Assembly (NCBI GenBank): GCA_947581825.1
Contig: CANPVP010000007.1
Location: 7,543-71,542 of the forward strand
Reading direction: 5' to 3'
Length of the DNA stretch: 64,000 nt
From: an uncultured Clostridia bacterium
Lineage (GTDB): Bacteria > Bacillota > Clostridia > TANB77 > CAG-508
Below the pieces are notes generated by a model. That model was not told the DNA's origin. It ran no database searches and saw only the letters and a list, made by a program, of their open reading frames with translations. The stretch's first letter is position 1; each line of letters starts with the position of its first letter. The position numbers and the translations under genes were made by a program. Positions 1-38,572 of the stretch are shown piece by piece.

Positions 1-3000
1 TGTAAATACTAATGGAAAATATAAAGATGGAGAGCAAACATTTACATTAGTACTAACTGAGCAAGAGAGTGGAAGATATATACCACTAGAACATGATATA
101 GAAATTGAGTATACTTGTAAATATGATACAACAAATGATAAATGGGAAACTAAGTATACAAAAGTAAAATATGGAGACAAACAGGCAGAGGTTAAAGTAC
201 AAAATAGCGAAGCACAAAATCTTACAGGTTTACTAGATACAGATGAACTAGGCTTGTATCAGAAAGGTACTGATATTTACGTAGTAAATAAACCAGACTT
301 TAATCCAGCTCAAATACTATTACAAAAGAAAGATGAAGAAGGAAATCTTATAAATGGAATTACTTTCAAAGGAAAAGTTGAGCAAGTAAATCCTATAGAA
401 GGTGAAAAAGCAGATGCTGTAAATTTCGAAGTAACAACTGGTGAATCAAAAGATGCTAATGGAAATATTCTACAAGGTGTTGCTTTAATAGATAATATAA
501 ACTTATCTAGAGAAATAAAAATTACTATAGAAAGTGAAGCATGGAAAGATAAAAATAATAAACAGCCTCTAGAGTTCCCAACAGAACCTATAGTAATTAC
601 AGGAATAGAAGTATATGATGATTGGGAAGGAAATATTGGATATAAAAAGATAAGAACAAAAGATGATAGTGGAAAGATTACTGTACAAATAGGTGAACAA
701 GAAGCACAAACAATTGATGTAAATAATAAAGACGAAGCTTCTGAAAACCTTGTATCTTTCACTGGAAATGACAGTAATGTTGTAACATTCTATATTACAA
801 ATAAAAATAAAACATATGATCTAGATGGAAAAGATGCTGATACAGGAATACCATTCCCATATAAAGTTGAAAGAGACATTTTAGGAAATGAAAAGAACGT
901 AACAGAAGGAATTACATTTACTGGAAGAATAGAAGATAGCAATGGAGAAATACTACAAGACCCAGTAACTGTACAATTTAAACAAAATGTAAATTCATCA
1001 GCAGATGGGGCAAATGGAGAAGTAGGCATTGAAGCTAAAGATATTAATGGAAAAATATCTGTAAAAGAAGGAGAACAAGAAGAAGAATATAAACTTATTA
1101 TAAAAGAAAATAATGTATCAAGTAACAACACTGATGCTGTAACAGTTATATACACTTGTAAATATAATAGCGATGAAGACGAGTTTACATCAAAAATAAA
1201 AGCCTATGAGTACAATGGAAAAAGATATGATTTTAACAAGAATATGGAAGAAGTTAAAAAAGACTTAATTCCAGGTGAAGTTAAAGATGATGGTGCAAGA
1301 ATAAATATAAATGATTTATATGTTCCTATAAGAAAATTTGATGAATATGGAAATCTAATAAATGGAGTTGTATTCAAAGGAAAAATAAAAGTAAACATAG
1401 AAAAAGATGAAAATGGACATCCAAAGGATTTTAACTTAAAAGAAGAATATGATTTTATAACAGTAACTGGTGGACAATACTGGAATGATGAAACAAAGCA
1501 GATGGAAACAGCTCCAGATGGTGTTGCAGTAATACCAATTCCAAGTGAAGTAAAAGGAGATTTCACTATAACTATTGACGAAGAATATTGGGGAACTTAC
1601 AAAGAGAATAAATGGACTACAGAAAAAGGAAAATTACCAGATGGACAATTCCCACTAGAATTTGTAAAAGGTGTAGTAGAAATAGGTGGATATGGCATTA
1701 AAGAAGAGACAAAAAATGATATAACAGAAAGAACTGTAACATATAACGGAACAACTGTTAAATATACATTAAATGGTAGTGAAGAAAATAGTGAACCTAT
1801 AGAAGTAGAAAATTATAAAGCTGTAACTACAGATGAAAAAGGTTATATTAGATTTATAAATAATGAACTTAGATATGATTTGAAAAAATCAACTGAAACA
1901 GGAGAAGGAAACAATTTATTTGATGATAAATTTTTAGAGACAAGTTATGGATATAGAACTAAAATAAAAGAAGGAATTTATTTTACAGGCTATATAGTTG
2001 ATGAAACTAAATATGATGAAAAGGGAAATATTATTAAACCTAGTGTAACATTACAAGAAGGTAGAAGTACAAAAGATCCAGAAGACAAAAATAAAGTTAC
2101 TGTTGCTTTAGATAAAGATACAGGAGCAATTGTAGCAACAGGAATTAAAGGAAGTATAGCAGGAATAGATGAAAATAAAACCTTTAAATTTGTATTAGAA
2201 GAATTAAGTTCAAATGGTGAAAATGGCACTCTTAATGTAGTACCAATAGATCCAATTGTAGTAGAATATACTTGTAAATATGATAGAGAAAATGAAAAAT
2301 TTGAAACAGCAATAACAGCATATGAATATAAAGGAAAAAAATATAGAATGTCAGATATTCAAGAACAAACAACTGTAGAAAAAGACATAATTCCTGGATT
2401 AGTATGTGTTAAAGAGGAAGAAAGTAGTATTACAGATAAAATTGGATTAATAAACCATGAAAAGACAATTGATATTCCTTTAGTTAAAAAGGATGAAGCA
2501 GGAAGATTAGTAAATGGAATTAAATTTACAGGAAAAATAATAGCATTAGACGAAGAATATAAAGACGAAAATGGAAAACCAGTATTTGAGACTACAGAGG
2601 AAACAAACAATAATGAACAACCTACAACAAAGAGAAAATCAATGAATTTTGAAGTAGTAACTGGTGAAGTTCCAACAAAAGATTCAATAAAATTAGATGG
2701 TAGCAAAAATGAAGCAAATAATAGCGAAGATAAAAACTTTACAGATGAAGATGGAAAACCAATGTATACAGCTCGTGATGGTGTTGCTTTAATACCTCAA
2801 ATTCCTTATACTGGAAAAGTTAAAATTATTATTGAAAAAGAAGAATGGGCAGATGAGGATTATAAGCCAGCTCCAGGAGATCCAGACCTTGAATTTATAG
2901 ATGGACAAATAGAAGTAACGTTTAGTATTGTCAAAGATAAAAATGGTGAAAAACACATAAATTATAATGGTGGAATGCAAATTGAAGTTAAGGATAGAAA

Positions 3001-6000
3001 TGGTCAAAATATTACAAATGACTATATGGATCCAAAGAATAATCAACACAAGATTATAGTTGGACCAAATTACTTGGGTAAAGATGAAAAAGATTTTGCT
3101 TTTGGAATTAGTGTTACAAATAAATTTAAATCTTATGATGTGCCAATAGCTCTAAAGGTAATTGAAGAAGATACAAATGCTGAAAATGAAGAAAATAATG
3201 AAAACAAAAACATTGTAACAGTAAATAATAAAAAATACAGACAACCAACAAAAGAAGAAGCAAAAGAAATTAAATTTAGAGCAGAAGTTACAGATAGTAG
3301 TGGAACTGTAGTACAAACTTTATTACCACTAACACCAGACGATATGGCAAAAGCAGATGCAGTAGGAATTGGAATTGAAGTTAAAGATATAGATAGTGAT
3401 GGCAAAGAAGAAGCTGTTATCATAGCAAAAGGTATAAAGGGAAGTATTAATAAAGGTGAAGATTTAATTATAAAATTACAAGAAGTGTATTCAGGCGGAT
3501 TAGAACCAATACCAGATATAAAAGTTCATTATAAAATTGAAAATGGTGAAGCAAAAATAACAAAATATGAATGCAATGGACAAACAGATGAATGTAAACA
3601 ACAAAATAATGGAACATGCAAGATAAAAGATTTAATTTATGTTAGCGAAGATGGTAAATATGCATTAGTAAATAAACCTGAAACAGGAGAAGGACCAAAA
3701 GAAACAACACCAATACTTACAATTAAAAAAGTAATGAATGTAGATGGACATGAGGTAGGAGTTCCAGGTATATACTTTAAAATAAGAGTATGTACTGAAG
3801 AATGTAAAAATGATTGCAAAGATCCAGATAAATGCTCTTGCCAAGAAGGTGAAGAACCATGTGAAAAATGCTTTGATTATACAGCAATTTCACAAGCATA
3901 TGGATTAACTACATTCAAACTTACAGATTTTGCAAAAAATAAAGAAGATATAACAACTGGCAAAGTAAAAGTTATTATACTAGAAGAAAGATTAGCAACA
4001 GAAGAAGACAAAGCAAAAATTAAAGAAAATTCAGAAGAAACATCAGAAGATGAGAAAACAGCAGAAGTAGCACCATATACTACTGAACAACCTGGAGAAG
4101 TTAAACTTGAATTTATTAAAAATCCAATTGTAATTAATGGAATTGAAATAAAGAATGGTGAAGAAGAAAATGGAGATAAACAATGTAAAGTAGATTATAC
4201 TAATGCTACAGTAGCTGATACAAACAGTAATGTAAGCTTTGATAATCAAGTAGGAATGCAGATTGTATTTACTAATAAAGAAGCTACATTTGATTTAGAT
4301 TTATTCAAAGGTAAAATGATTAACTATATTGGTGAATTAGAACAAATCTATAAAGGTGTAGAATTTGAAGCTGATGTAGTTAGAGCAGAAGATATAAAAG
4401 CAGAAAACATAGCAGAAGTAAGCTTACAACATATAGTTTCTACAACTGATGAATCTACTGCTGAAAATACAGGCGATAATGGAAACTTAGCTACAACTGG
4501 AATTGAGACAAATAATGGTAAAATTCAAATAAAAGGAATTAAAGGTACTTTTGCATCAGAAAGTAATGAAGAACAACAAGAAAATGCACAACAATATGCA
4601 GTGGTATTAAGAGAAACAGCATCAGAAATATCAGATGCAAAAGATATGCCAACAATGGCAATTGTATTTGAAAGTAAATGTACAACAGGAACAGACGGAA
4701 AATGCACATTCACCCCAACTATAAAAGAATATAAATGGCAAGATGATAATGGATGGCATACTTTAAATGCATTGCAAAATCTTGAACGTGATGAAAATGG
4801 CAATTTAGAACAAGTCCTTGTTACTAATAGAATGTTGAGAAAGATTGAAAATGGTAAAGAAGAAACATATATAGTTAATACACCACCAACAACAATAATT
4901 GGTGGAGGATATTTACCAACAACAGTTGATATTCCTTTAGTTAAATATGATGAAAATGGAAATTTAGTAAATGGAGTAAAATTCTCAGGACATATAGAGG
5001 TTGGTAATCAACAGAAAATGAAATTCTCAACAATAACTGGTGAAGTTCCAACAACAACAATTGCTAATGGATTTGAAAATGTATATGTAGCTCGTGATGG
5101 TGTTGCAATAATACCAAAAATTCCATTTACAGGAGAAGTTAAAGTAGTTATTGAAAAAGAGGAATGGGCTAGTGATGCTTATAAACCATCTGCAGGTTAT
5201 CCAGATCTAGAGTTTATAGATGGAAAAATAGAAATAACATTAACTATAAATGAAGATGAAAAAGGAAATAAACATATTCAACAAGGTGGCATAAGCATAG
5301 CAGTAAAAGGCAAAGACGATAAAGACATTACAGACCAATATATTGATAGAAAAAATGGTAATAATAAAGTTTTAGTTGGATTAAATAGTTTAAATAAAGA
5401 TGATAACGAAGATAACGAAGAATTATTATTCGGAATTAAAATTACTAACAAAATTAAAACTTATGATTTACCAATAGCATTAAAAGTAATTGCAGAAGAT
5501 AACGAGAATGCTAATGGAGCAAATACTATAAAAGTAGGTGATAAAACATATAGAACACCAAGCACAGAAGAAGCTAAAGAACTTAGATTTAGTGCAGAAG
5601 TTTTAGATAGTACTGGAACTGTAGTACAAAACTTATTACCATTAACACCAGAACAAATGCAAAATGCAGATGCAGTGGGAATTGGAATTGCTACTAAAGG
5701 ATCAGACAACAAAACAGAAGCTGTTATTACAGCAAAAGGAATAAAAGGAAGCATAGTAGGAGATAACTTAACGATAAGATTACACGAAGAGAATTCTGCT
5801 GGATTAGAACCAATACCAGATATAGATGTTCATTATAAAACAATTGGAGATGATGCTCCAAAAGTAACATCATATCAATGTGGTGAGAAAACAGTAGAAA
5901 ACAGTGCACCAACAAATGGTGAACAATGCAATATAGAAGATTTAATTTATGTTAGCGAAGATGGTAAATATGCATTAGTAAATAAACCTGGAACAGGAGG

Positions 6001-9000
6001 AGGACCAAAAGAAACAACACCAGAACTTACAATTAAAAAAGTAATAAATGTAGATGGACATGAAGTAGGAGTTCCAGGTGTACACTTCAAAATAAGAGTA
6101 TGTACTCCTGAATGTAAAAACGATTGTACAGATGTAGCAAAATGCGGATGTGAAAACAATAATGATTGTGATAAATGTTATGATTATGAAGCAGTTTCTA
6201 AAGCAGGTGGTTTAGCTACTTTTGAACTTACAGATTTCAGCAAAGATACAACAGCTCAAAACATTGATAATCTAAAAGTAATTATATTAGAAGAAAAATT
6301 AGCAACAGAAGAAGAGAAGGCACAACTAGCAAAAGAAGGAGTTGAACCATATACTACTGAAAACCCTGGAGATGTTAAACTTGAATTTATTAAAAATCCA
6401 ATTACAATTAATGGAATACAATTAAAGAATGCTACAGAAGGAAAAAAGACACAATGCACAGTAGATTATACTAATGCTACAGTAGCAGATGAAAATAGTA
6501 ATGTACGTATCGATAACAACGCAGGAATGCAAATTGTATTTACTAATACAGAAGCAACATATGATTTAAAATTATTTGATAGCAAACTAGTATATGAAGA
6601 TAATAAATTAAAACAAATCTATAAAGGTGTAGAATTTGAAGCTGATATAGTTAGAGTTGAAGACATAAATGCAGAAAACATAGCAGAGAAGAGTTTACAA
6701 CATTTTGTTTCTGAAAAAGCCAAAGCTACTGCTAATAACACAGGCAAAAATGGAGATTTAGGTACAGTAGGACTAGATGAAAGTAATGGTCAAATCAAGC
6801 TAAAAGGAGTTAAAGGAACTTTAGAAGGAGATAATGGACAAGAATATGCAGTTATGTTAAAAGAAACATCATCAGAAGTATCAGATGCAGACGATATGCC
6901 AACAATGGTGATTGTATATAAATGTACTTGTACAACAGATGGAAATGGAAAATGTCAATTTAAACCAGAAATCGAAGAATACAAATGGCAAGATGATGAA
7001 GGATGGCATTCTCTAAATCCAACTCAAAATATTCAAACAGGTGAGAATGGACAGATAGAAAAGAATGAAATTATTGTTGATGGTAGAGTTAAAATACAAG
7101 TATTAGACGATAATAACAAGGTAGTTTCTCTAATTAATGATGGTGGAAAAATAGAACTTTCTACTTCTGAAAGTATTAAATTAACTAAAAAGGACAGCAA
7201 TGGAAATACAGTAGGAGGTATAGAATTTAAAGGAAAAGTAATTGCTTTAAATGCTGATGGAACACCAAAGAAAGAAGCTATGTCAGATGAACAAGGAAAT
7301 ATTATACAAGGCACAAAGAATATTGAATATGAATTTGATGTAATAACTGATAATAAAGGAACAGCTTTAATATACACACCAGATGCTAAAGAAATGCCAA
7401 AATACGAAGGTAAAATTAAAGTTGTTATTGAAGATGAAAAATGGGCAGCAAGTGTAACAGAGCCACCTTATAAACTAGGCTTTGCAGATGAAATAATCGA
7501 AATCACAGGATTAGAGTTAAAAACAGAAACAACTGGACAACTAAAAAACGGAAAAATTGTACACACTAGAGTTATTTATCCAGAACAACTTACTGTAACA
7601 TCTTATAAAAAAGGAGAAAATGGAACAAAAACAGAAGCAACAAATACATACAAAGATAAGGTTTCATTAGGTAAAGATAGTGTTATAGGAATTGAAATTG
7701 AAAACTCAATTTTAGACTATGATGTAGATTTATTTGATGCAAAAATCTTAAAATATGGTGAACACTATGAACAACTAAATTCAGATGTTACATTCTCAGG
7801 AAGAATTATAGGCTACAAAGGTAAAGATTCTAAGCAAGAAGCTAAAGACTATGATGTAGAAGTTAAATTGATTGAAGAAAATGATACAACATCAGGACAA
7901 CAAGGAACAGCAAATGGTAAAAAAGGTAAAATCGTTGCAAAAGGAATAAATGGAGAAATAACAGGAAGCGGTATATACTTAGAACTAATAGAAAAATCTA
8001 TTAATTATGATGTAGAAGATGTAACAGTTATAATCAAATATGATTATACTCCTGATGCACAAGGAAAAGGTACACCAGTTATAAAAGAATATAGAAAATG
8101 GAAAGATGGTGTAAAGGGTGAAGCAAAAGGAAATGTTTCAGATAATACTACAGATTTAATTTGTAATGCAGAAGGTGATGATAATGCCAAAGCATTAATT
8201 GGTGAAATGATTTATAAAAACTATAGTGATACAGCTAAGAATAGCTTAGTAAATATAGTTACTCCAAATCCACTAGACCTTCAAATTAAAAAAGTAGATA
8301 GCAATGGAAAACCTGTTGCAGGAATTAAGTTTACAGGAAGAATAATTGCTGTAGATGATAAAGGTGAAGCTAGAAAAGAAAAAGATGCACAAGGAAAAGA
8401 AGTTGAAATCAAGAAAGAATTTACAACAAGTATAGCAAACTCAGAAGAGCCTCTACAATGGATTACATCTGATTCAGATGGTGTTGCAAGTTTACACTTA
8501 ACATCAGAAGAAGTTAATAAATTTGCAGGAAAGATTAAGATTGAAATAGACAGTGAGGAATGGAGTACAGATGAAAAAGATCCATTAAGAGTTGACTCAT
8601 CAAAACGTACACCATTAGACTTTATCGATGGAAAAATAGAAATTACTGGAAAGAAAATTGATGTTCAAAAAGATAAAACAAGTAGTATAATAAATGCTGA
8701 AAATAATGGAACACCAACAGTAAAAATTATGAAAGATAAAGAAGATGTTACTGAAAAATATAAAGATAGAGTTAATGCAAATTCAAATGAAATTGCTTTA
8801 AGCATGAAGAATATTATTAAAGAATATGATTTAAAATTATTTAATAAGAAGATTATAAATGTAAATGGAGAAGAAATACAAATTAAAGGAGCCATTACAT
8901 TTACAGGAGAAATTAAACAAAACGACCAAACATATCCTATTACTATAGCTTTTGGTCCAGAAACAGATGGTGCAATTATTGCAAAAGGTATCAGAGGAGA

Positions 9001-12000
9001 GATAGTAGGAGATAATATTAAACTTTCAGTTAAAGAAGCAAAAACAATTCCAGGAATTGTTCCAGTAGATTTTGATATAGTATATTCTTGTACATATAAT
9101 GATGGTAAGTTTGAAACAACGATATCAAAGAAAACAATTAAAGACCAAAATACAGGAGAAACTCTAAAAGAAATAAATGGAACAAATGAAAATGGAGATG
9201 TTTTAGAGGAAGACATTACAAAAGATGGTGTAGAATTACAGATTAGAAAAGTGGATGAACATAATGTACCAGTAGCAGGAATTAAATTCTCAGGAACAAT
9301 AACATCAGAAGAAAATAATGGTGGAAAAATAACATTTTCTACTAAGGCAACTGATGAAAATGGTATTACAACTATAATTATTTCAAAAGCTGATATAGAG
9401 CAATACATAAAATTAGGTAGGTTTAATGTAGTTATAGACAAAGAAGAATGGGATAATGGAGCAGAAGCAAAATGGAATGCAATAGCAGGAAATGCTGATA
9501 GAAAACTTCAATTTATAACCTCACCTGTAACAATTTCAGGTTATAAGTTATTTGAAACTTGGGATGGTAACTATGCTCATAGAAGTGTAGACTTTAGTGG
9601 AATAAGCTGTGAAGATACAGAGCATGTTGAACTAGAAAAAGATACAGTAACAATTAAATTTAAAAACAACGATTTAACATACAACATACCATTTATTAAA
9701 ACAGATAAATTATTAACTAATGATAACCAAGATAGTGCTGAAAAATTAAAAGAAGTATCATTTGATATTTCTATAAAAGAAAGTGATGAAGATAACAATC
9801 CACAAAGATTTTATACAACATCTGATGACAATGGTAGATTTGATATAGAAGGAGTTTCAAAATTTGGAGATAATGTAACTTTAACATTAAAAGAGATTAC
9901 TTCTGAAAATGAAACAGCCCAAATGCTAGATGAACCAATAATAATTACTTATAAAACTGTAATAAGTAATGGAAAAGTTTCATTAGAAAATGTAAAAATT
10001 AATGGTAAGGAAATAGATGCACCTTCTGATGATCAAGTTAATAAAACAGATATAGAAGAAGAAAAAGAAAACAATATACAAAAAATCGATGTACAACAAG
10101 ATGAAGGAATAGTGTTAGCAGGATTTAATGTTGTAAACTTTAAAAAATATAGAATTACAATAGATAAAGACTTAAAAGTTGAGGATACAACAATAGATGC
10201 AACTGAATCTGTAGGATTTAAAGGTATTATTACAACAGATCCAAGTAAAGTAAATGGCAATAATACAATTATGAGTTATAAAGATTTTGAGAGTAAGTTA
10301 GAAACATGGAAGAATAGCTCTGATAAAGATGTAATTTACTTTGATGGTCATACAACTGGTGGAAAATTAGAAATTCCAAAAGACATAGATTTCTATGATA
10401 AGCAAGTTTATGTGTACTTTATTGAGTACGATGTTCCAGCTACAATGACTGAAATTAATGAGGTTATGTGGGCATCATTCAATAAGAGAATAACAAATGC
10501 TGAGGCAAATAGTGCATCTTCAGCAGGTAATGTTGAAATTACAAATACAGATACATTAAATATAAGTATTAAAGTTGTAAACCAAGCAAAATCTTATAAT
10601 GTTAACTTTAAGAAAATAGATGCACAAGATCCAAATAGGCAAATTGACTATAGCAATGCTAAATTTACAGTACAATTAAAAGCTTTGAAAGAAGACAACT
10701 CAGCTACTGAAGTAGTTGATACAATGGATATTGAATTTAATGGATTAGGAAAAATAAAAGAACAAACAAAGCCTGGAAAATACTTAGTTGATGCAAAATT
10801 TGAAGATAATCAAATTAAAATTGATGTAAATAAATTTGGTAATTTACAATTAGTAGTAACAGAGGATAGAGCACCAGCAAATTATCAAAAACTAGATACA
10901 GATATTGTAATTAATTATAAAGCAAATGCAGAAGCATCAGAAAAAGACAAAATAATAACTGATGTTCAACTTGAAAAGAATACAAATCCAAGCATTAAAG
11001 ATAAAATAAATGCAAAACCTAATGCTAAAGGAAATGATGTAAGCTTAGACTTCACATTACCAAACTATCCAAATGAATATAGTTTAACGATTAAGAAAAA
11101 ATCTAGAACAAATCCTGACAGTATATTAAATAATATTCAATTCCAATTATTGTTCTACAAAAATAGTGATAATAAAGAGAGATTTGAATATCTAGAAAAA
11201 ACATTGTATGTTGTTAATGGAGGAAAAGTAACAGTAGATGGCTTAAAAGAATATGGTGCAAATTATATGGTACTTCATGAAACAGAAACTGATGGAAAAG
11301 TAGTTAAGCTTCCTGGATATCATGTGTTTAATGTAGAAGCAGTAGTTGGACAAAAACCAAAATTAACATACTTAGGAATGTTTAAATCAGATAAAGAAAA
11401 AGAAGCTGATTATACTATAGAAGAAATAGATAGTAAGTTTAAAGAGCAAGATATTTCTAAACTAGATAAAGCATATAGTAGTTATTTCAAAACAGATGAA
11501 AATTCTGTTGAAGTAGGAAGCTTAGTTGTTGGAAATGATGAACCAAAACTTTACGATATAGATATATTAAAAATAGCTGAAGAAAAAGATGCAAAAACTG
11601 GAAAATCAAATCCACTAGAAGGAGCAATATTTAACTTATACTTAACTAAATCAGATGAAGATTATGCAACAGGAGAGAACCTATTAGATGTTAAATATAG
11701 AAGACAAACAACACCAGTAGATGGACTTATTTCTATCAAACAATTAGATAAGTATAGCGATAAATATGGTGATTTAAAATTAACCTTAGTTGAAGAAAAA
11801 CCACCAAAAGACTATAAAACAGTATTTAGTAAAATAGAAGTAACATATAATACAACAGATGGAAAAACTATTGAAATAAAATCAATAAAAGTATTTGATG
11901 CAAATAATAAAGAAATGTCAGATTACAAAAAATATGTAAACATAACTAATGGTAGTACAGACAAGAAAATAGAAGAATCTAAAATAGAAATAAGTGTTCT

Positions 12001-15000
12001 AAATCCACATAAAAAATCAGTACCATTAGGAATAAAGAAGGTTTACTATGAAGAAACAATAGAAAATGGACAAAGAACAAAGAAAGAAAAACCTATTAGT
12101 AATGCAACATTTAGTGGTGTCGTTTATGAAATAGGTAATCCAGATGATAAAACACCATTTACATCTAAACCAACTGGAGAGGACGGTACTGTTAAGCTTG
12201 GAGACTTCTATGTTGAAGGCGAAATTGAGGTAGTAATCGAAGAAATTAGTTCACCTGATGGATTTGAAAAAATACCTAAAACTACAATAGAGTGTTATGT
12301 TGGCGAAGAAAACAAGGCTACTAAAATAGATAAAAAATATGAAATTTCTACAAATGCAATAGAGTCAATTGAATATACTAATAATATGAATCTATTAAAA
12401 GTTGTTGATACACCAATTTTTGAAACAGACATATCTTTAGCAGGTATTGTTTGGGAAGATAGACCAACAACATTAAGTGAAAAAGAAGAGGCAGATTATA
12501 CAGTAGTCGATGGAAATAAGTATGTTGCAGGAGAAGGTTTTTATGATGAAGGTATAGATAAACTTATTACAAGTAAAAATGCAGATGGTGATGCTACATC
12601 AGAAGTAAATGATGTTGTAGATGGTATGATAGTTACATTACATAAATTAGAGCGTAATGATAAAAATGAGTGGAGAGAGAAAAATGAATACACAGGTTTT
12701 GCAAAAGTAACAACTGGTGATACAGGAAGATATGAATTTAGGGAATTAGACCCATTTGCAAAATACTATATTACATTTAAAATGGAAGGTAAGTATAATT
12801 CTGAAGATTATGAGCATGTTCATTTCTTAGTAGAAAAATTAAATGTTAGCGGTGAAGGTGATAATAAAACAGTAACAATAGACGATTATAACTCAATAGT
12901 AGAAGCAAAAGCTGCAAATAATCTTGAAAGTTGGAAACGAAATTCAAAGGCAGTAGCAGATGGTGTAGAGTCTGGCAATGGCGTAGATCCAAATATTTCA
13001 ACAACAACACAAACAAGAAATGCTAGAGGAAATAAAAACGGTGTTAACAAAATGGATAATATACAAAAATATCCAGTAGATGATTACTTTACTATAGTAG
13101 ATAAAGAAAAATATATAGATGAAAACGGTGAATATAAAGGAGCTTATGTACTTTTCAATGTAGATGTAACGGATAGTCAAAAATCAAATCAAACTATTGT
13201 CTATGCAGATTACTCAACAAGCGGAAAAGAAGAAGATAAGATTGAATTTAGTTCTTTAGATCCATGGCATGACTATATAAACTATGGTATCGTTGAAAAA
13301 CCTAAATTTGATTTATCACTAAGCAAAGATGTTGAAGAACTTTCAGTTAAAGTAAATGATAAAACGATGAAATATATATATGGTAACAAGATTGATTCAG
13401 GACATATGTATACATTAGAAATTAATGAAGCAGATATATCAAAACTAGCAGATATGAAAATTATTTATAAGATAGTTGTTAAAAACGAGAGCGTTAATCC
13501 AGGATACTTAAATTCAATAGCTGATTACTACAATTCAGACCTTATGAAATTTGAAAGCTGGAGTTTAGACGGAAAAAACTACGGAAAAACTGGAGTAACT
13601 GAAACAGAAGAAACTGGTTTAGTACCTGAGCAATATATAACAGGAGTAGTTGATGCAGATGGTAATAGTACAGGTGGAACTCTAACAGTAAATGGAGCTA
13701 ATACAAAACGAGTATTAATTCAAATTCCAGATGCTGAAGAAGGTAATAAGGATAAGAATAGAACAATATATTCAGGTGATGAAAATGCTAAAACAATTCT
13801 TATAACATATCAATATGATACAAATAAATTAAAAGAAAATGATAGTTTGTTTGGTAAGATTGCTAAAGCAGGAGATTCATATGTTACATTAGGACCAGCA
13901 GAAATTTATAGCAGTAATAGTCTAGGTGGCAGAAGAGATATAAACTCAATAAATGGAAATTTATCAAGTAAATTTACTGGTATTTATAACGAGCAGTTGA
14001 AAACTTTCTACACAAATTATGATAATGAGGGTGCATATTATCAAGATTTAAGACATAGCCTTGAAGGTGAAACAGATAAAGATGATGAAGATGTAGCACC
14101 AGCATTAAAAATACTAATAGCAGATCCAGGCAATAGAAAAATAACAGGTTCAGTATTTGATGATATAGAGGGAAACGGCTGGAAAGATGAAAATGATATA
14201 AATATTAAAGGAATAAAAGTTGAATTGTATAAGTGTGATGAAAATGGCAATATTAGAGAGGATGCAAAACCTGTACAATCAACCCAAACAGATGAAGATG
14301 GAAAATATGAATTTGTAGGAATTGAAACAGGATATTACAAAGTAAAATTCACATATGGTGATGAAAATACTCTATTACCTAAATTATATACAAGTACATA
14401 CAATAATGATTTATTAAAATATGTACAAGAACTACAAGAATTACCTGAATGGAATGATGAAGAAAATAATACTATTTATCCAAGAAATAATGAAAATTCA
14501 TATAATGGATTAGAATATGAAGATTCTACTCAAAATAAAATTATAGAGTATAATAGAGGAGATGAATATTGGTATAAGCAGAATAGAGATGAGGCATATT
14601 CTGATGCTGAAGACGAAGATGCATCAAGAAAAAAAGCAGATACAACTTTAAATGAAAGCGAATATTCTACAACAACAAACTATTATTTTATGGATAATGC
14701 AAAAGCCGAATTATTGTATTCATATAGAGGCGATATAACTCAAGAAGAAGTTCAAGAATACATTAGAAAATTAAAAGAAAATTCTGTAACAGCAACAACA
14801 GAGAAATTCAAAATTAATATTATGGATACAGATAGTGACGAACTAACATATGTTACTACAACAGAGTCAGGAGAGACACAATATACAGATGGTGAACATA
14901 TAATTGATACAGGATGTGAAGCTCAAATAGACTTTGGTGTTAAGCAAAGACCAAAAACAAATCTTAAAGTTGAAAAAACTGTAGATAATGTAAAAATCTT

Positions 15001-15856
15001 TACAAGTTCTGGAAATTCTAATGTAGATGCTTCTTACAAAGATGGACGTGCAATAGGGCAAGTAGGAAGAGTACAATGGAGTAAGGATTCTATTGCAGGA
15101 GAAAATGGAAATGGCAACAGAGGATACATTTGGATACAAAGATCAGAAGAAGAAATTGTAGGTGCTACATTAGAAATTACTTATAATATAAAAGTTAAAA
15201 ACGAAGAAGATGAAGCAACTAGAAAAGATCAATGGGTAACTATTGTAGATTATGTTCAAGAGGGTATGACATATTCTGATGAGAATAATACTGGTAATGG
15301 ATGGAATCTTCAAAAGGCTACAACTAAAGACAATAAGTCTTCAATTGGTAATATTTATATAAACAAAAATATTGACTTGACAAATGTAAGCACAGTAGTA
15401 ACACAAGACGTAGAATTACAAAATGGAGAATCAAAAGATATTAAGATTACATTAACAAAAACTCTAAATTCTTATAGTAATACTGATATTGATGCATATA
15501 CAAACTATGTAGAAGTAATATTAACAGCAACACCTGATATGGCTAAGAGTGACAAGAATTCTATACCAGGAAACTTCGATCCAAGTCAAGAAACAACATT
15601 AGAAGGAAACTTAGGAACAATATATGATTTACATCAGAATAGACGTGAAATAGAAGAAATACCATATGATCACCCAACTGAAGAAAGAACAACAATGAGA
15701 TTGGAAAGAGATACAGCAAAAGCACTAGAAACAATAAGTATTACAGCGGAAACTGGTGAGAATAGAAATACAGTATATTACATCTTGGCATTCGCAATAA
15801 TAGCAGTATTTGCAACAGGTATAGGAATAATTATTAAAAAAGTAATTAAGAAATAA
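1..15856 (+). CDS. Giant cell-surface fibrillar adhesin-like protein, 5'-partial (reading frame open from nt 2 to the window edge, so the true start lies upstream of the window). Tandem SpaA/Cna-B-type isopeptide domains, SdrD-B-like domains, conserved C-terminal module and a C-terminal TM anchor.
   Basis: 15.6-kb uninterrupted ORF in frame 2 with no in-frame stop from nt 2. Recurrent Cna-B/SpaA signatures, for example KKVDSNGKPVAGIKFTG, TEDRAPANY and LVEEKPPKDY (E-x-x-AP-x-GY type). SdrD-B-like segments such as KITGSVFDDIEGNGWKDEND...TDEDGKYEF...GYYKVKF. C-terminus ends ...ITAETGENRNTVYYILAFAIIAVFATGIGIIIKKVIKK, a hydrophobic helix plus basic tail. Colinear with gene 2 from about nt 22600 onward. 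Confidence 0.85.
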   Translation, partial: VNTNGKYKDGEQTFTLVLTEQESGRYIPLEHDIEIEYTCKYDTTNDKWETKYTKVKYGDKQAEVKVQNSEAQNLTGLLDTDELGLYQKGTDIYVVNKPDFNPAQILLQKKDEEGNLINGITFKGKVEQVNPIEGEKADAVNFEVTTGESKDANGNILQGVALIDNINLSREIKITIESEAWKDKNNKQPLEFPTEPIVITGIEVYDDWEGNIGYKKIRTKDDSGKITVQIGEQEAQTIDVNNKDEASENLVSFTGNDSNVVTFYITNKNKTYDLDGKDADTGIPFPYKVERDILGNEKNVTEGITFTGRIEDSNGEILQDPVTVQFKQNVNSSADGANGEVGIEAKDINGKISVKEGEQEEEYKLIIKENNVSSNNTDAVTVIYTCKYNSDEDEFTSKIKAYEYNGKRYDFNKNMEEVKKDLIPGEVKDDGARININDLYVPIRKFDEYGNLINGVVFKGKIKVNIEKDENGHPKDFNLKEEYDFITVTGGQYWNDETKQMETAPDGVAVIPIPSEVKGDFTITIDEEYWGTYKENKWTTEKGKLPDGQFPLEFVKGVVEIGGYGIKEETKNDITERTVTYNGTTVKYTLNGSEENSEPIEVENYKAVTTDEKGYIRFINNELRYDLKKSTETGEGNNLFDDKFLETSYGYRTKIKEGIYFTGYIVDETKYDEKGNIIKPSVTLQEGRSTKDPEDKNKVTVALDKDTGAIVATGIKGSIAGIDENKTFKFVLEELSSNGENGTLNVVPIDPIVVEYTCKYDRENEKFETAITAYEYKGKKYRMSDIQEQTTVEKDIIPGLVCVKEEESSITDKIGLINHEKTIDIPLVKKDEAGRLVNGIKFTGKIIALDEEYKDENGKPVFETTEETNNNEQPTTKRKSMNFEVVTGEVPTKDSIKLDGSKNEANNSEDKNFTDEDGKPMYTARDGVALIPQIPYTGKVKIIIEKEEWADEDYKPAPGDPDLEFIDGQIEVTFSIVKDKNGEKHINYNGGMQIEVKDRNGQNITNDYMDPKNNQHKIIVGPNYLGKDEKDFAFGISVTNKFKSYDVPIALKVIEEDTNAENEENNENKNIVTVNNKKYRQPTKEEAKEIKFRAEVTDSSGTVVQTLLPLTPDDMAKADAVGIGIEVKDIDSDGKEEAVIIAKGIKGSINKGEDLIIKLQEVYSGGLEPIPDIKVHYKIENGEAKITKYECNGQTDECKQQNNGTCKIKDLIYVSEDGKYALVNKPETGEGPKETTPILTIKKVMNVDGHEVGVPGIYFKIRVCTEECKNDCKDPDKCSCQEGEEPCEKCFDYTAISQAYGLTTFKLTDFAKNKEDITTGKVKVIILEERLATEEDKAKIKENSEETSEDEKTAEVAPYTTEQPGEVKLEFIKNPIVINGIEIKNGEEENGDKQCKVDYTNATVADTNSNVSFDNQVGMQIVFTNKEATFDLDLFKGKMINYIGELEQIYKGVEFEADVVRAEDIKAENIAEVSLQHIVSTTDESTAENTGDNGNLATTGIETNNGKIQIKGIKGTFASESNEEQQENAQQYAVVLRETASEISDAKDMPTMAIVFESKCTTGTDGKCTFTPTIKEYKWQDDNGWHTLNALQNLERDENGNLEQVLVTNRMLRKIENGKEETYIVNTPPTTIIGGGYLPTTVDIPLVKYDENGNLVNGVKFSGHIEVGNQQKMKFSTITGEVPTTTIANGFENVYVARDGVAIIPKIPFTGEVKVVIEKEEWASDAYKPSAGYPDLEFIDGKIEITLTINEDEKGNKHIQQGGISIAVKGKDDKDITDQYIDRKNGNNKVLVGLNSLNKDDNEDNEELLFGIKITNKIKTYDLPIALKVIAEDNENANGANTIKVGDKTYRTPSTEEAKELRFSAEVLDSTGTVVQNLLPLTPEQMQNADAVGIGIATKGSDNKTEAVITAKGIKGSIVGDNLTIRLHEENSAGLEPIPDIDVHYKTIGDDAPKVTSYQCGEKTVENSAPTNGEQCNIEDLIYVSEDGKYALVNKPGTGGGPKETTPELTIKKVINVDGHEVGVPGVHFKIRVCTPECKNDCTDVAKCGCENNNDCDKCYDYEAVSKAGGLATFELTDFSKDTTAQNIDNLKVIILEEKLATEEEKAQLAKEGVEPYTTENPGDVKLEFIKNPITINGIQLKNATEGKKTQCTVDYTNATVADENSNVRIDNNAGMQIVFTNTEATYDLKLFDSKLVYEDNKLKQIYKGVEFEADIVRVEDINAENIAEKSLQHFVSEKAKATANNTGKNGDLGTVGLDESNGQIKLKGVKGTLEGDNGQEYAVMLKETSSEVSDADDMPTMVIVYKCTCTTDGNGKCQFKPEIEEYKWQDDEGWHSLNPTQNIQTGENGQIEKNEIIVDGRVKIQVLDDNNKVVSLINDGGKIELSTSESIKLTKKDSNGNTVGGIEFKGKVIALNADGTPKKEAMSDEQGNIIQGTKNIEYEFDVITDNKGTALIYTPDAKEMPKYEGKIKVVIEDEKWAASVTEPPYKLGFADEIIEITGLELKTETTGQLKNGKIVHTRVIYPEQLTVTSYKKGENGTKTEATNTYKDKVSLGKDSVIGIEIENSILDYDVDLFDAKILKYGEHYEQLNSDVTFSGRIIGYKGKDSKQEAKDYDVEVKLIEENDTTSGQQGTANGKKGKIVAKGINGEITGSGIYLELIEKSINYDVEDVTVIIKYDYTPDAQGKGTPVIKEYRKWKDGVKGEAKGNVSDNTTDLICNAEGDDNAKALIGEMIYKNYSDTAKNSLVNIVTPNPLDLQIKKVDSNGKPVAGIKFTGRIIAVDDKGEARKEKDAQGKEVEIKKEFTTSIANSEEPLQWITSDSDGVASLHLTSEEVNKFAGKIKIEIDSEEWSTDEKDPLRVDSSKRTPLDFIDGKIEITGKKIDVQKDKTSSIINAENNGTPTVKIMKDKEDVTEKYKDRVNANSNEIALSMKNIIKEYDLKLFNKKIINVNGEEIQIKGAITFTGEIKQNDQTYPITIAFGPETDGAIIAKGIRGEIVGDNIKLSVKEAKTIPGIVPVDFDIVYSCTYNDGKFETTISKKTIKDQNTGETLKEINGTNENGDVLEEDITKDGVELQIRKVDEHNVPVAGIKFSGTITSEENNGGKITFSTKATDENGITTIIISKADIEQYIKLGRFNVVIDKEEWDNGAEAKWNAIAGNADRKLQFITSPVTISGYKLFETWDGNYAHRSVDFSGISCEDTEHVELEKDTVTIKFKNNDLTYNIPFIKTDKLLTNDNQDSAEKLKEVSFDISIKESDEDNNPQRFYTTSDDNGRFDIEGVSKFGDNVTLTLKEITSENETAQMLDEPIIITYKTVISNGKVSLENVKINGKEIDAPSDDQVNKTDIEEEKENNIQKIDVQQDEGIVLAGFNVVNFKKYRITIDKDLKVEDTTIDATESVGFKGIITTDPSKVNGNNTIMSYKDFESKLETWKNSSDKDVIYFDGHTTGGKLEIPKDIDFYDKQVYVYFIEYDVPATMTEINEVMWASFNKRITNAEANSASSAGNVEITNTDTLNISIKVVNQAKSYNVNFKKIDAQDPNRQIDYSNAKFTVQLKALKEDNSATEVVDTMDIEFNGLGKIKEQTKPGKYLVDAKFEDNQIKIDVNKFGNLQLVVTEDRAPANYQKLDTDIVINYKANAEASEKDKIITDVQLEKNTNPSIKDKINAKPNAKGNDVSLDFTLPNYPNEYSLTIKKKSRTNPDSILNNIQFQLLFYKNSDNKERFEYLEKTLYVVNGGKVTVDGLKEYGANYMVLHETETDGKVVKLPGYHVFNVEAVVGQKPKLTYLGMFKSDKEKEADYTIEEIDSKFKEQDISKLDKAYSSYFKTDENSVEVGSLVVGNDEPKLYDIDILKIAEEKDAKTGKSNPLEGAIFNLYLTKSDEDYATGENLLDVKYRRQTTPVDGLISIKQLDKYSDKYGDLKLTLVEEKPPKDYKTVFSKIEVTYNTTDGKTIEIKSIKVFDANNKEMSDYKKYVNITNGSTDKKIEESKIEISVLNPHKKSVPLGIKKVYYEETIENGQRTKKEKPISNATFSGVVYEIGNPDDKTPFTSKPTGEDGTVKLGDFYVEGEIEVVIEEISSPDGFEKIPKTTIECYVGEENKATKIDKKYEISTNAIESIEYTNNMNLLKVVDTPIFETDISLAGIVWEDRPTTLSEKEEADYTVVDGNKYVAGEGFYDEGIDKLITSKNADGDATSEVNDVVDGMIVTLHKLERNDKNEWREKNEYTGFAKVTTGDTGRYEFRELDPFAKYYITFKMEGKYNSEDYEHVHFLVEKLNVSGEGDNKTVTIDDYNSIVEAKAANNLESWKRNSKAVADGVESGNGVDPNISTTTQTRNARGNKNGVNKMDNIQKYPVDDYFTIVDKEKYIDENGEYKGAYVLFNVDVTDSQKSNQTIVYADYSTSGKEEDKIEFSSLDPWHDYINYGIVEKPKFDLSLSKDVEELSVKVNDKTMKYIYGNKIDSGHMYTLEINEADISKLADMKIIYKIVVKNESVNPGYLNSIADYYNSDLMKFESWSLDGKNYGKTGVTETEETGLVPEQYITGVVDADGNSTGGTLTVNGANTKRVLIQIPDAEEGNKDKNRTIYSGDENAKTILITYQYDTNKLKENDSLFGKIAKAGDSYVTLGPAEIYSSNSLGGRRDINSINGNLSSKFTGIYNEQLKTFYTNYDNEGAYYQDLRHSLEGETDKDDEDVAPALKILIADPGNRKITGSVFDDIEGNGWKDENDINIKGIKVELYKCDENGNIREDAKPVQSTQTDEDGKYEFVGIETGYYKVKFTYGDENTLLPKLYTSTYNNDLLKYVQELQELPEWNDEENNTIYPRNNENSYNGLEYEDSTQNKIIEYNRGDEYWYKQNRDEAYSDAEDEDASRKKADTTLNESEYSTTTNYYFMDNAKAELLYSYRGDITQEEVQEYIRKLKENSVTATTEKFKINIMDTDSDELTYVTTTESGETQYTDGEHIIDTGCEAQIDFGVKQRPKTNLKVEKTVDNVKIFTSSGNSNVDASYKDGRAIGQVGRVQWSKDSIAGENGNGNRGYIWIQRSEEEIVGATLEITYNIKVKNEEDEATRKDQWVTIVDYVQEGMTYSDENNTGNGWNLQKATTKDNKSSIGNIYINKNIDLTNVSTVVTQDVELQNGESKDIKITLTKTLNSYSNTDIDAYTNYVEVILTATPDMAKSDKNSIPGNFDPSQETTLEGNLGTIYDLHQNRREIEEIPYDHPTEERTTMRLERDTAKALETISITAETGENRNTVYYILAFAIIAVFATGIGIIIKKVIKK
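2470..4929 (+). repeat. Intragenic tandem repeat unit, copy a (about 2.46 kb, roughly 820 aa, multi-domain module containing the 7-Cys insert).
   Basis: Begins gatattcctttagttaaa (DIPLVKKDEAG...) and is colinear, domain for domain, with nt 4930-7090. Stretches are nearly identical at nucleotide level, for example 3628-3710 versus 5938-6020. Confidence 0.8.
4930..7090 (+). repeat. Intragenic tandem repeat unit, copy b.
   Basis: Begins with the identical gatattcctttagttaaa (DIPLVKYDENG...). Same domain order as copy a: VTGEVPT..., ARDGVA.IP, KIRVC-Cys cluster, YAVxLxET..., KEYKWQDDxGWH. Confidence 0.8.
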
Positions 15857-15886
15857 TAGTTACTGTAAATAATAATAAACCTAAAC

Positions 15887-15913
15887 AAAAAAACGAGCTT
15901 TGCTCGTTTTTTT
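15887..15913 (+). terminator. Rho-independent terminator of giant gene 1.
   Basis: aaaaaaacgagc-ttt-gctcgttttttt: perfect GC-containing stem with a 3-nt loop followed by a T7 run, 31 nt after the stop at 15854-15856. Confidence 0.8.
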
Positions 15914-16233
15914 GTTACCTCCAACTATTTGTTTTTATATTATATTATCAAAATTTTCATCAGCTTTTTTGGACAAAAAAAACGCAAAACTGGCTTTTCC
16001 CTAAGTATAGTGACATTTCAAATAAGCCAATGTAATGAAAAAATAATATAAATGAAACATTATGACATCAAACCCGCATCCGTAAAGACTTAGAGAGAAT
16101 ATTACTATATAATATATTGAAAAAAAAATTACAAAATGCAAAAATATCTATAAGTATGTTGCTAATTAACATAAAAATAATCGACAGCGATAAACACTAA
16201 ATTTAATACTAAAAGAGAGTAGTATTAAAATGA

Positions 16234-16245: not shown

Positions 16246-19200
16246 ATGGAAAGGATAAAACAAAAACTACTAGCAATAATCCTAATAATAATAGCTGGAA
16301 TAGTAGGATACCAAGCATATGTTATGGCACATGGATATCCAAGAGCAATTGGACAGGGTGTACCATTTTGGTCAAATGGATCTATGGTGTATTGTAGAGA
16401 GCATAACAATGGTTGGGGCTATGGACAAGGAGCTGCTGATAGAGCATCCTATTATGTATGCGTTGGCGAAGTTAGCACGGTGGCTAAACAAGCTGATGGA
16501 CTAGCATATTATGTATCTAGAGCAAGTGCAAGAAGTATACAGGATTTAATATGGAGTAAAAGTGGATCTAGTGCAGGACAATCAATAATAAATATGGGAA
16601 CTGATTTTAGAAGTTGGTTTGCACCATGGGGCAGTGATAATTTTGCAAATTTATTTTCTATAAATGAAGGAAATAAAGAAACAGGAAATGAAGAAAAAAA
16701 TTCAGCTTCAATGGAGGCTTTACGCAAAGATGTTACTGTTAAAGTTGTTGATGAACTTCCTGACTGGTTTTTTACAAATGTAAATGCTGGTTCTGTAGGA
16801 GAAAGTGATAAAAAGAATAATAGTACAGCTCTTTCTGATAGTGAAATAAACGTGATTATTAAGGAATATGAAAAAAATCACACAAAGGAAGAAACAGAAG
16901 CTTTTAAAAAAGAATTAAAAGATGCACAAAATAACGAGAAAATAATCGAAACAACAGTAAACAAGGTAATTAATACTATAAAAGCAAAGAGTATAGACAT
17001 AAATAGATTTACTGAAGAGCAGAGTAATGAACTTAAGGCAGAAATTCAAAAAGAAGAAGGTATAAAAAATAGTATTATTCCAAGTAAGAAAAAAGAAATT
17101 GAGCAACAAATTAAAAATAAAGAGAGAGAAAATGTAAATGATATAAATAAAGTAGCAACTGAAGAAGTAACAGAAGATATTTTACAAAGAGCAGTAACAA
17201 AAATTGAATTAGAGCAAAATGAAAAAGAAGAAGAGAAAATAGAAAAAGAATTAAAGAAAATAGAAGAACTTTTAGAAAAAGAAAATTTACAACAAGATTT
17301 AAGAATAATAAAAGAAGATTTAAAGACTATAAGAGATAATTGGAATACTACAAAAGAAAAGTACAAAGCAAATCAAATAAGTGTAGAAGATTATAAGAAA
17401 ATAGAAGATGAATACTATAACAAAGTATTAAAAGATATACAAACAATTTTAGTAAATAATTATGAAAATACTGAAGAGTTGAATCAATATAAAGGAAATC
17501 AAGATGCAAGTGAAGAAGAATCTTATAATTTAGTAGACTTAATAGTAGAACAATCAGGCAAAATAAGTGATATATCTTATGATGAATATAAATATTTATA
17601 TGATATGCATAAATTATTTCAATTTTTTGGTAGTTACAAAAACCAAGCAAATACCTTTTTAGATGGAAATGTAAATTCAGAATCATGGAATTTATTATTA
17701 AGACATTTAAATAGTTATTCATCAGATGGTACAAGTAATTTATTAAGAAAAGTAGATAAAAATATCTCAATGGCTGATAAAAATTCTACAACATATGTTT
17801 CAAATGTAACTCAACTTGATCAATCTAAAATAGTTTCAGTAGAAAGTAAAGATAATTCATATGGAACTGCTGTAGACATTTATGCACATTATCAATTAAA
17901 TTTAACAAGCGAACAACAAGCAAAATTGAATAGCATGAATAATGAAAATGAGAAAAGAGAATATCAGAAAACAATTGGACAAACATTATGGGCTTATCAA
18001 TCAGATAGAAAAAAAGATAAAGATGGAAAAGAGATTACACATCAAATAACAATAGATGGACAACAAAAAACTTATTATGAATATGAAAAAATATATTTTG
18101 AAGATCAAGCAGATTCTGTTGTTTCTTTCTTTAGTGAAGAACTACTTTGTATAGGAACAGACGATCAAGATGGTGTAATTGGTACAAATGCAAGCGAAAC
18201 TAGTGCTTTATTAAAATATATTGAATGCTTTAAAGATGATGCAAAGGGTACTACAGAGTTTTGTTCGTTTATAAAGAATAAATATCCTAATTTAGCAAAA
18301 CAATTATCAGAAGCAAAAGGAAGTAATTTAAGCGAAAGAATAATAAATTTATATAATAAATATACAAGCAAAATAACAAATATCTGCCAAGAAGATAATT
18401 CAGAACATTACTATGTATATAAAAATAAAGTGGAAGAAAATTATTGGGATCTTAATTGGGGAGATACAAAAAAAGCAGCTAGATTATATCAATGGTTGAT
18501 GACAAGAGATGCAGAAGGTGTAACTAACATAGATAAAATAGCAGGTCAATTTTCAATTGATGATACTGATGCAAGGGTTTCAATAGATAGAGTAAGTGGA
18601 AAATATCTTATTGGACCATATACAATAAATTATTCAACTTTGATATTAAATGGTGAGAAATTATTAGGAATAGATGATTTTTCAGTATTGTTATCAATGG
18701 GAGAGAATGGAAAAGAAGTAAATAAAGTTCTAACTCAAGGAGATGGAAAAGACCAATATAATATAGTTTGTATGAAAGGTACAACAAGAAATATTAAAAA
18801 TAAAGATGGAAAAACTATAGAAGTTCCTAAGAGTGGAAATTCATTCTTTATTGAATTAGATAAAGATGTAAAAGGTAATGGAAAACGTTTAACAGAAAAT
18901 GATATATTTAAATTTAATATTTCATATGAATACTTAAAGCAAATAAATGCAACAGTTCACTTATTAAGAGATAGTGCAAGTGATGCATCTAGTGGTACTC
19001 CTGATATATGGAATTCTTCTCACCCTCAAAGATTAATGACATTTACTTGGAGATCAGAAAGAGATTATATTGATAAGTCTATTGCAACTAGTACAAGAGA
19101 GTATGACTTTAAATTGAGAAAAACTGATAAAGAAACAGGTAAAGGTGTTAATGGTGGTAAATATATTGCTGCTGCAAAATATAAAAATTCAAAAGATGGT

Positions 19201-36285: not shown

Positions 36286-36297
36286 TTACAAAATACA

Positions 36298-36326
36298 AAA
36301 TAAAGCGAGCATTGCTCGCTTTATTT
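36298..36326. terminator. Bidirectional rho-independent terminator between the convergent giant gene 2 and ttcA-like gene.
   Basis: aaataaagcgagc-att-gctcgctttattt: 13-bp perfect stem, A-rich on the 5' side and T-rich on the 3' side. Confidence 0.8.
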
Positions 36327-36334
36327 TGCATTAA

Positions 36335-37834: not shown

Positions 37835-38572
37835 ATGGAAGTTTCAAGAAGAGCTATACATATAGTACTTATTATATGCATAATAGTTGCTGTTGCAATT
37901 TTTGTTGGAGTAACAATGCAAAGATATGAAATTGAAGGCGAAAAGAATATGCCATTTGAGCTTTCAAAAATAATGATATTTAGTACTGCTGAAGGCTTTG
38001 CAAATGAAAAAAGTGATTATAAATGGGACTTTAATATTTTTCAAAATAATGATATTTATATAAGCATAGCAAAAAATGATGATTATAAAAAAACAGAAAT
38101 TATAGATAAAATAGTAATTGATAATTTTTCAATAGATGAAAAACCCAAAAAGGGTGAATTAGTAGTTTATAAGCCAAATATAGAAACAGCAACACCTTTT
38201 AAATGTGATGAAAAATATGAAGTAAAAGATGTGTTAGAATTTACGGGTGAAACAGAAGCAAATGTAGAAAAATTGCAAATTGCAAATCAAGGTGGAATGA
38301 TAATTTTTAGAATTTCTAATAAAAATCTTCATAGATACCAATCAAATGATGATAAAACAATAGTACATGATGGAACTTTGTTGGCAAAGGCTAATATAAA
38401 AAATGAAGATATAAAATGCAAAGTGTCTTTTGATATAACCATAGAGTTAAAATCAGAAAAAAAATATAAGGGAACAATCACTTTAGAATTGCCAGAAGGA
38501 AATATATTAAAAAATGGTCAAGAAAGCTTAGAAATAACAAATTTTGATGATGTAGTATTTAAGAGAATATAA
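37835..38572 (+). CDS. Hypothetical membrane-anchored protein (N-terminal TM helix).
   Basis: ORF with AGGAG RBS. N-terminal hydrophobic segment IHIVLIICIIVAVAIFVGV. No recognisable catalytic motif. Confidence 0.55.
   Translation: MEVSRRAIHIVLIICIIVAVAIFVGVTMQRYEIEGEKNMPFELSKIMIFSTAEGFANEKSDYKWDFNIFQNNDIYISIAKNDDYKKTEIIDKIVIDNFSIDEKPKKGELVVYKPNIETATPFKCDEKYEVKDVLEFTGETEANVEKLQIANQGGMIIFRISNKNLHRYQSNDDKTIVHDGTLLAKANIKNEDIKCKVSFDITIELKSEKKYKGTITLELPEGNILKNGQESLEITNFDDVVFKRI

Follow-up and report, generated by a model that had tools for sequence, protein, structure and literature searches.

In the definition of a sortase substrate, the recognition motif lies 17–45 residues from the C-terminus (PMC4155245). 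Among the systems closest to the one described here, SrtB of C. difficile cuts the T–G bond of SPKTG-DN and PPKTG-DS (PMC4155245). Class E sortases take LAXTG signals, in which P3 is Ala, and in SrtE1 this is brought about by a Tyr in the beta3/beta4 loop (PMC5148588), whereas SrtD of C. perfringens does not cleave LAETG (PMC4498605). The present analysis concerns g1 and g2, two tandem giant genes on the + strand of a 64-kb stretch of contig CANPVP010000007.1 from an uncultured Clostridia bacterium (this whole stretch is called the window in the following), the products of which both end in the pentapeptide TAETG, a hydrophobic segment and a lysine-rich tail. From our point of view, and with a probability of roughly 0.6, the C-terminal 40-odd residues of both proteins represent a sortase-type cell-wall sorting signal with TAETG as variant pentapeptide, probably the lineage's own variant of ordinary anchoring by sortase and not a new sorting system.

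A sequence-only reading of the same DNA had stated that both giants finish in nearly identical sequences, and translation reproduced both of the strings it quoted, the one for g2 with a trivially different start (36154, not 36160). The translation of 15257–15856 ends in ETISITAETGENRNTVYYILAFAIIAVFATGIGIIIKKVIKK and the stop codon of g1, and that of 35686–36285 in ETISITAETGENRATTYYILAFAVIAVFATGVGVIVTKVIKKK and the stop codon of g2. In both proteins SITAETGEN is followed by a polar spacer of 3–4 residues, an uncharged hydrophobic run and a Lys-rich tail. In g1, SITAETGEN occupies 15737–15763 (TAETG 15743–15757), the hydrophobic segment TVYYILAFAIIAVFATGIGIII 15770–15835 (22 residues, mean Kyte-Doolittle value 2.35) and the basic tail KKVIKK 15836–15853, with the stop codon at 15854–15856; the predicted scissile bond of the proposed sortase pentapeptide would lie between T (15752–15754) and G (15755–15757). 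The corresponding elements of g2 are SITAETGEN at 36163–36189 (TAETG 36169–36183), the hydrophobic segment ATTYYILAFAVIAVFATGVGVIVT at 36193–36264 (24 residues, mean Kyte-Doolittle value 1.95), the basic tail KVIKKK at 36265–36282 and the stop codon at 36283–36285, and all of these features are on the + strand. With 32–33 residues after the Gly of TAETG, both motifs fall inside the range given for sortase substrates, and both tails show the hydrophobic segment of ~15–25 residues and the basic end that are expected of such a signal.

Over 5497 aligned columns, g1 and g2 are 36% identical, and over the last 42 columns they agree at 35/42 positions. Windows of 42 columns that are equally similar amount to 123/5456 (2%) and are clustered in 3–4 patches. 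Judged from this alignment, the likeness of the two tails exceeds what chance or general paralogy would give. Of the codons that differ among the last 51, 10 show synonymous changes only and 8 are non-synonymous; since the three differences within the ETISITAETGENR block are all synonymous, the tail peptide appears to be under purifying selection. Recent gene conversion of the tails was also considered and is ruled out by the 10 synonymous differences.

SITAETGEN is invariant in 11 homologous proteins. Together with the membrane segment and the basic tail, it is found in g1, g2, the orthologue in a metagenome-assembled genome (MAG; locus L007), both genes of locus L132 (P0003 and a second giant gene adjoining it), P0002 and P0005–P0008; P0001 and P0002 are fragments in which the motif is present. 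Besides g1 and g2 there are at least nine carriers, 31–55% identical to g1/g2 overall, and the codons of the motif vary synonymously between AGT/AGC for Ser, ATT/ATA/ATC for Ile, GCA/GCG for Ala, ACT/ACA for Thr, GAA/GAG for Glu and AAT/AAC for Asn. The membrane segment is also strongly kept within the TAETG clade (YYILAF..IAV[FL]ATG). A degenerate DNA scan for [IVM]TAETGEN gave 116 matches in metagenome contigs, none of them with a hydrophobic segment, basic tail and stop, and one match in viral contigs, which is without a membrane tail; in 185,579 species genomes it returned one relative only, the uncultured Clostridia MAG Lapin-032__bin6. The 52-residue tail alone as homologue query yielded no candidate, and the C-terminal domain as query had no match in the plasmid collection.

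This pattern bears on an alternative explanation, namely that the hydrophobic segment is a permanent C-terminal membrane anchor and that TAETG is either an uncleaved relic of TPETG or a structural element next to the membrane, maintained for reasons of folding. One would expect a motif without function to drift, yet 9/9 residues of SITAETGEN are invariant in proteins of such low overall identity, with synonymous codon changes and directly next to a linker that is rich in indels in the g1/g2 alignment. Moreover, T-G, the acidic residue and Asn have been retained as in the functional-looking TPETGEN and SPKTGDN. On balance with the points in its favor that are given below, we consider a permanent anchor rather unlikely.

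The gene for P0008 (3874 residues) is located on contigs of three assemblies, the very ones that also contain the window region. Since the assemblies are shared and the coverage matches within 10% (6.2 vs 6.4, 6.9 vs 6.3 and 6.9 vs 6.8), P0008 very probably belongs to the same organism, as its third paralog with TAETG. Tetranucleotide similarity does not separate the organism from its relatives, and the assignment of this contig to the same genome is consequently one by shared samples and coverage. The same contig (L133) encodes at 619–5940 a DUF11-repeat protein of 1773 residues (119.9 bits on TIGR01451) which was missed by the C-terminal profile described below and which ends in LLTLKTGQIPVYFILGVGVLTVIAGGIYLIKKYVYDRMI, hence in TLKTG, a membrane segment and KKY; its tail reaches 15.3 bits on LPXTG_anchor. 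In locus L138, which belongs to a more distant relative, a further DUF11-repeat protein (4812–9986) carries SIRTG, a membrane segment and RKR. These tails suggest a second type of proline-less signal in these organisms (TLKTG, SIRTG), and the TLKTG protein, a single case with a genome assignment inferred from samples and coverage, hints that the sorting enzyme of the organism may accept T-[A/L]-x-T-G. One could speculate further that the lineage has a sortase or other C-terminal sorting enzyme with an as yet undescribed specificity for proline-less T-[A/L]-x-T-G, and that these signals are part of a larger family, not catalogued so far, some members of which have Phe at P1. We regard this as improbable; if true, the enzyme and the giant adhesins as its substrates would have evolved together, and it would by nature be orthogonal to the LPXTG sortases. 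Directly downstream of P0008 (L133:20241–21737) there is a gene for a PMT_2 family (dolichyl-phosphate-mannose-type) glycosyltransferase, which could glycosylate the adhesin.

The wider family was collected by searching 1.84 billion representative proteins with a profile built on the last 350 residues, which gave 222 matches at E<=1e-3. Inspection covered the tails of the best 150, and scanning the 138 that have a C-terminal membrane tail. Nearly all of the inspected homologues finish in a homologous tripartite tail. The nearest outgroups carry SITPETGEN (P0009) and AISPETGEN (P0011), and the other motifs among the 138 tails comprise TPPTG (35), TPNTG (8), TPSTG (7), TPATG (6) as well as TxPTG and related forms. 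That homologues bear [ST]PETG, TPPTG or TPxTG at the same position supports the sortase-type reading of the giants. Throughout the family the Gly is invariant, E-N commonly follows and the tail has the consensus KKKVL. Proline is present at P3 in 70% and at P2 in 66% of the 138 tails, and only the TAETG clade and three singletons have neither. The Ala codon GCA of the TAETG clade is one nucleotide apart from the CCA (Pro) of P0009. As read from these codons, TAETG is a one-nucleotide Pro-to-Ala derivative of TPETG, i.e., of a clostridial xPxTG(E/D)N signal, that was fixed in one clade. The idea of a new sortase-class recognition motif, which the sequence-only reading had put forward, was thus overstated, given that a single Pro-to-Ala step separates TAETG from TPETG, that Ala is known from LAXTG and that NCBIfam already contains models for LAETG and LAVTG signals. 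For none of the 20 family clusters looked up in the protein collection does any source provide a name.

Among 18,950 models, TIGR01167 (NCBIfam LPXTG_anchor) was the top model for the native tail. Editing of the g1 tail changed the score from 14.7 bits (native) to 17.9 (A to P), 17.6 (T to L) and 22.2 bits (TA to LP), and no match to LPXTG_anchor was left when ITAETGEN was scrambled or TG replaced by AA. Since these last two changes abolish the match, it depends on the motif and not merely on a membrane segment followed by lysines. The TPETG tail of P0009 reaches 17.5 bits and therewith exceeds the cutoff of 15.9. Across the 138 family tails, the NCBIfam models matched were LPXTG_anchor (86, best E 1.9e-6), EF0750_LPXTG (34), Rumino_NPXTG (33), LPxTATN (12), strep_LAETG (8) and srtB_target (8). 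An AlphaFold model of the last 354 residues, built from a 4-sequence alignment, has a predicted local distance difference test (pLDDT) value of 46.6; the Foldseek matches of this low-confidence model are weak (TM ~0.2) and mostly Gram-positive pilins, which may at best be called suggestive.

Several observations weigh against a sortase-type signal, and most of them also speak for a permanent membrane anchor. The native tails of g1 and g2 score 14.7–15.1 bits on LPXTG_anchor and hence narrowly miss its curated cutoff; they stay far under that of strep_LAETG (NF041528; 13.4 bits, cutoff 30) and also fall short on Pfam Gram_pos_anchor (12.8, cutoff 20). The tripartite sorting signal proposed in the sequence-only reading gains from the homologue motifs, the P0009 score and the motif dependence of the match, and loses from the scores of the native tails themselves. 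Furthermore, the LPXTG_anchor alignments of tails with Phe, Tyr or Leu in place of the Thr before Gly span only the membrane segment and the basic part (~15 bits) and, because they skip the motif, part of the count of 86 is not motif-driven. The exact TAETGEN with a membrane tail is known only from one protein family, so that the restriction to the two paralogs that had been considered before does not hold, while one to their family does. The proline that 70% of this family keep at P3 is lost in TAETG. The membrane segment and tail are unusually conserved, as they should be if they were part of the mature protein, and in C. difficile some proteins with SPSTG and SPQTG motifs do not undergo sortase processing in vivo (PMC5569036). 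Finally, the ~120 kb of the organism's genome that were accessible to a search brought up no sortase; they comprise the window (64 kb) and ~60 kb of further sequence attributed to the organism, among it the 10 kb to the right of the window and the 30-kb P0008 contig. The relatives' loci L007 and L132 had none either.

The tails with Phe, Tyr or Leu make up ~20% of the homologous tails (LPPFG, IPPFG, TKPYG and IPPLG; for example P0019, P0022, P0027, P0051, P0053 and P0072). To our knowledge, no characterised sortase cleaves after Phe or accepts Phe, Tyr or Leu at P1. One could hence imagine that a dedicated, undescribed enzyme of these gut Clostridia, either a divergent sortase subclass or a non-sortase, recognises the signal, perhaps across the whole family in the form [VI]x[VI]-T-P-P-[T/F/Y/L]-G-E-N / membrane segment / KKKVL. 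Such an enzyme would account for the members with an unusual P1 residue and for a conservation that goes beyond the needs of LPXTG signals, namely the hydrophobic triplet before the motif, the invariant Gly, E-N and KKKVL, in addition to Gly and Ile residues of the membrane segment, in its interior and at its end, that are >90% conserved. The sole sortase found in a relative points in the same direction. This PF04203 protein of L138 has a TLITC motif, lies 6 kb downstream of three tandem TPPTG-family members, fits no NCBIfam sortase class and adjoins a substrate with TED and SpaA domains that ends in LPITG rather than the TPPTG proteins. However, none of the 11 family loci examined has a candidate processing enzyme beside it, the best-matching curated models are all sortase signals, and TPETG, SPETG and TPxTG fit the known clostridial (S/P)PXTG specificity (PMC4155245). 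A dedicated enzyme thus seems very doubtful to us. The L138 sortase shows only that the wider group encodes sortases, and used as tblastn query it had no match in the loci of the organism. In this region of L138 (21795–23992), the sortase is followed by the TED/SpaA open reading frames ending in LPITGM and a stop, which look fragmented by frameshifts or assembly errors.

If TAETG is indeed a sortase signal, the N-terminal signal peptide, as read from g2, would take the protein through Sec, and the hydrophobic segment with the K-rich tail, likewise read from the sequence, would arrest translocation and keep the C-terminus membrane-bound with the positive side inside. A membrane-bound sortase would then cut between Thr and Gly of TAETG under formation of a thioacyl intermediate, and the carboxyl of this Thr would be joined to the amine of the stem peptide in peptidoglycan, in analogy to what S. 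aureus SrtA and C. difficile SrtB do. As a result, a fibrillar adhesin of ~0.7 MDa would become covalently attached to the wall and would lose its membrane segment and tail. Given that TAETG lacks the P3 proline, its sortase is predicted to have a changed S3 subsite, similar to class E enzymes.

As for the giant genes themselves, the open reading frame of g1 (2–15856, + strand) is open from base 2, comprises at least 5284 codons in the window and is cut at its 5' end by the window edge, so that its N-terminus lies outside; a TTG at 254 that appears as start in the list of open reading frames is an artefact. The length of the closest relative of g1, P0003 (6806 residues, 55% identity), suggests that ~1400–2200 residues of g1 are missing upstream of the window. 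The first 800 residues of g1 within the window, used as query, had no homologue at E<=1e-10. Two independent assemblies stop ~8.7 kb upstream of the point where the window begins; repeats are the probable reason. The second gene, g2 (16246–36285, + strand), encodes 6679 residues with an SdrD_B domain near the C-terminus. It is 99.985% identical to P0004 of the public protein collection (6679 residues), and in metagenome contigs of ENA that are near-identical to the window a gene of 6679 residues is called at its position. Pfam domains in both giants are confined to Ig-like domains of the SdrD_B and CarboxypepD_reg type near the C-termini (42.2 bits for SdrD_B in g1), and homologues of the family additionally bear SpaA and DUF11/CLIPPER domains; to judge from these domains, g1 and g2 are large fibrillar surface proteins. 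Since a terminator-like hairpin stands after each stop codon, palindromic with runs of A and T on both sides at 15884–15916 and directly 3' of g2 at 36292–36332, the ends described above are true C-termini.

The putative signal peptide or signal anchor of g2, MERIKQKLLAIILIIIAGIVGYQAYVMA (16246–16329, + strand), was recognised by eye and hydropathy rather than with a dedicated predictor. Its basic n-region is followed by a hydrophobic core and, before HG, by a V-M-A site, as expected for Sec, and this pattern is kept in 5 homologues. The module after the signal peptide (window positions 16246–16650, g2 residues 1–135) also occurs at the N-termini of P0003 and P0006–P0009. It consists of GYQA, which ends the signal peptide, and CREHxN...YxC with two invariant Cys (in C-R-E-x-x-N and Y-x-C), and in g2 a long Lys/Glu-rich stretch lies downstream. 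YCREHxN prompted the idea of a thioester domain (TED), for which neither Pfam TED nor NCBIfam gave a match; the Cys module may form a small tip domain of the disulfide-bonded or thioester type.

The remaining genes of the window, which has a GC content of 29%, are housekeeping genes (dnaX, ybaB, recR, rpoB, rpoC, an LCP protein gene, mecA, radC, mreBCD, a penicillin-binding protein gene, minC and comEA), and MecA, LCP and MreBCD constitute a monoderm Firmicute context, in keeping with anchoring by a sortase. Between tadA and dnaX, a protein of 245 residues (37835–38572, + strand) is encoded in conserved synteny; it has a membrane helix at the N-terminus and an ectodomain rich in beta structure. 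Considered as a divergent sortase, it had no Pfam or NCBIfam match and no TLxTC motif, and its single-sequence AlphaFold model (pLDDT 41) was unusable. Past the right end of the window (L012:1–9841) there are genes for a WG_beta_rep protein (504 residues), a protein of 411 residues, ACPS, TatD and a G5+3D protein, and L012 holds a further large protein of at least 1849 residues that is cut by the contig end before its C-terminus. Directly downstream of other family members, though not of the giants in the window, lies, in three different relatives, a very large gene of the GH94/glycoamylase type (L007:11173–18945, L132:30542–38758 and L137:17378–21720), the product of which resembles cyclic beta-1,2-glucan synthase or cellobionic-acid phosphorylase.

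Covalent wall anchoring of a fibrillar adhesin is ordinary biology, and TAETG brings no new principle; it would be useful for the annotation of uncultured gut Clostridia and is a possible lead to a naturally orthogonal sortase. Screens for adhesins use LPxTG, LAxTG, IPxTG, NPxTG and similar motifs (PMC9210967). Such motif screens, or the TIGR01167 cutoff, miss TAETG and most TPPTG/TPxTG members, and the largest surface proteins of these bacteria therefore go unannotated as wall-anchored. The string TAETG itself was not found in the literature searched.

Compared with known systems, the giants share a single C-terminal helix and a short basic cytoplasmic tail with tail-anchored proteins. Unlike true tail-anchored proteins, g2 has an N-terminal signal peptide, and an invariant TG motif 3–4 residues outside the helix is not required by a plain anchor. 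The LPXTG/sortase pathway (TIGR01167, Pfam PF00746) has the same tripartite organisation at the extreme C-terminus, in which T-G precedes an acidic residue and Asn and a stretch of ~20 hydrophobic residues leads to a basic tail, and its substrates, e.g., protein A of S. aureus (LPETGEEN...), are like the giants secreted fibrillar surface proteins with Ig-like stalk domains. In contrast to LPXTG, the giants have Thr instead of Leu at P4 and Ala instead of Pro at P3.

The class E signals of Actinobacteria (LAXTG, as in the Streptomyces chaplins) share the Ala at P3, and AETG is identical to the end of LAETG. They demonstrate that specialisation of a sortase for signals lacking proline is feasible. 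However, the Leu at P4, for which SrtE1 has a non-polar S4 pocket, is replaced by Thr in 11/11 TAETG proteins, the curated LAETG model is not matched at its cutoff, and the class E hosts are actinobacterial whereas that of the giants is a 29% GC Clostridia bacterium. TAETG clearly arose independently of LAETG, from TPETG within a clostridial family. So far, specificity of the proline-less, polar-P4 type has been linked only to the actinobacterial class E (LAXTG) and to laboratory-evolved SrtA variants. Should TAETG be cleaved, natural sortase recognition in Firmicutes would extend to a proline-less signal with a polar P4, and the enzyme that recognises it would qualify as a possible orthogonal ligase in sortagging.

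The signals of C. difficile SrtB (PMC4155245, PMC5569036) share with the giants the clostridial host, a P4 residue that is small or bears a hydroxyl (Ser vs Thr) and the Gly followed by D/E and N/S. The giants agree with this (S/P)PXTG system in TG-EN, the membrane segment, the basic tail and the host, but all C. difficile substrates have Pro at P3 and Ser or Pro at P4, where the giants have Ala and Thr. The outgroups P0011 (SPETG) and P0009 (TPETG) conform or nearly conform to the C. difficile pattern, and the family consensus TPxTG(E/D)N fits it as well.

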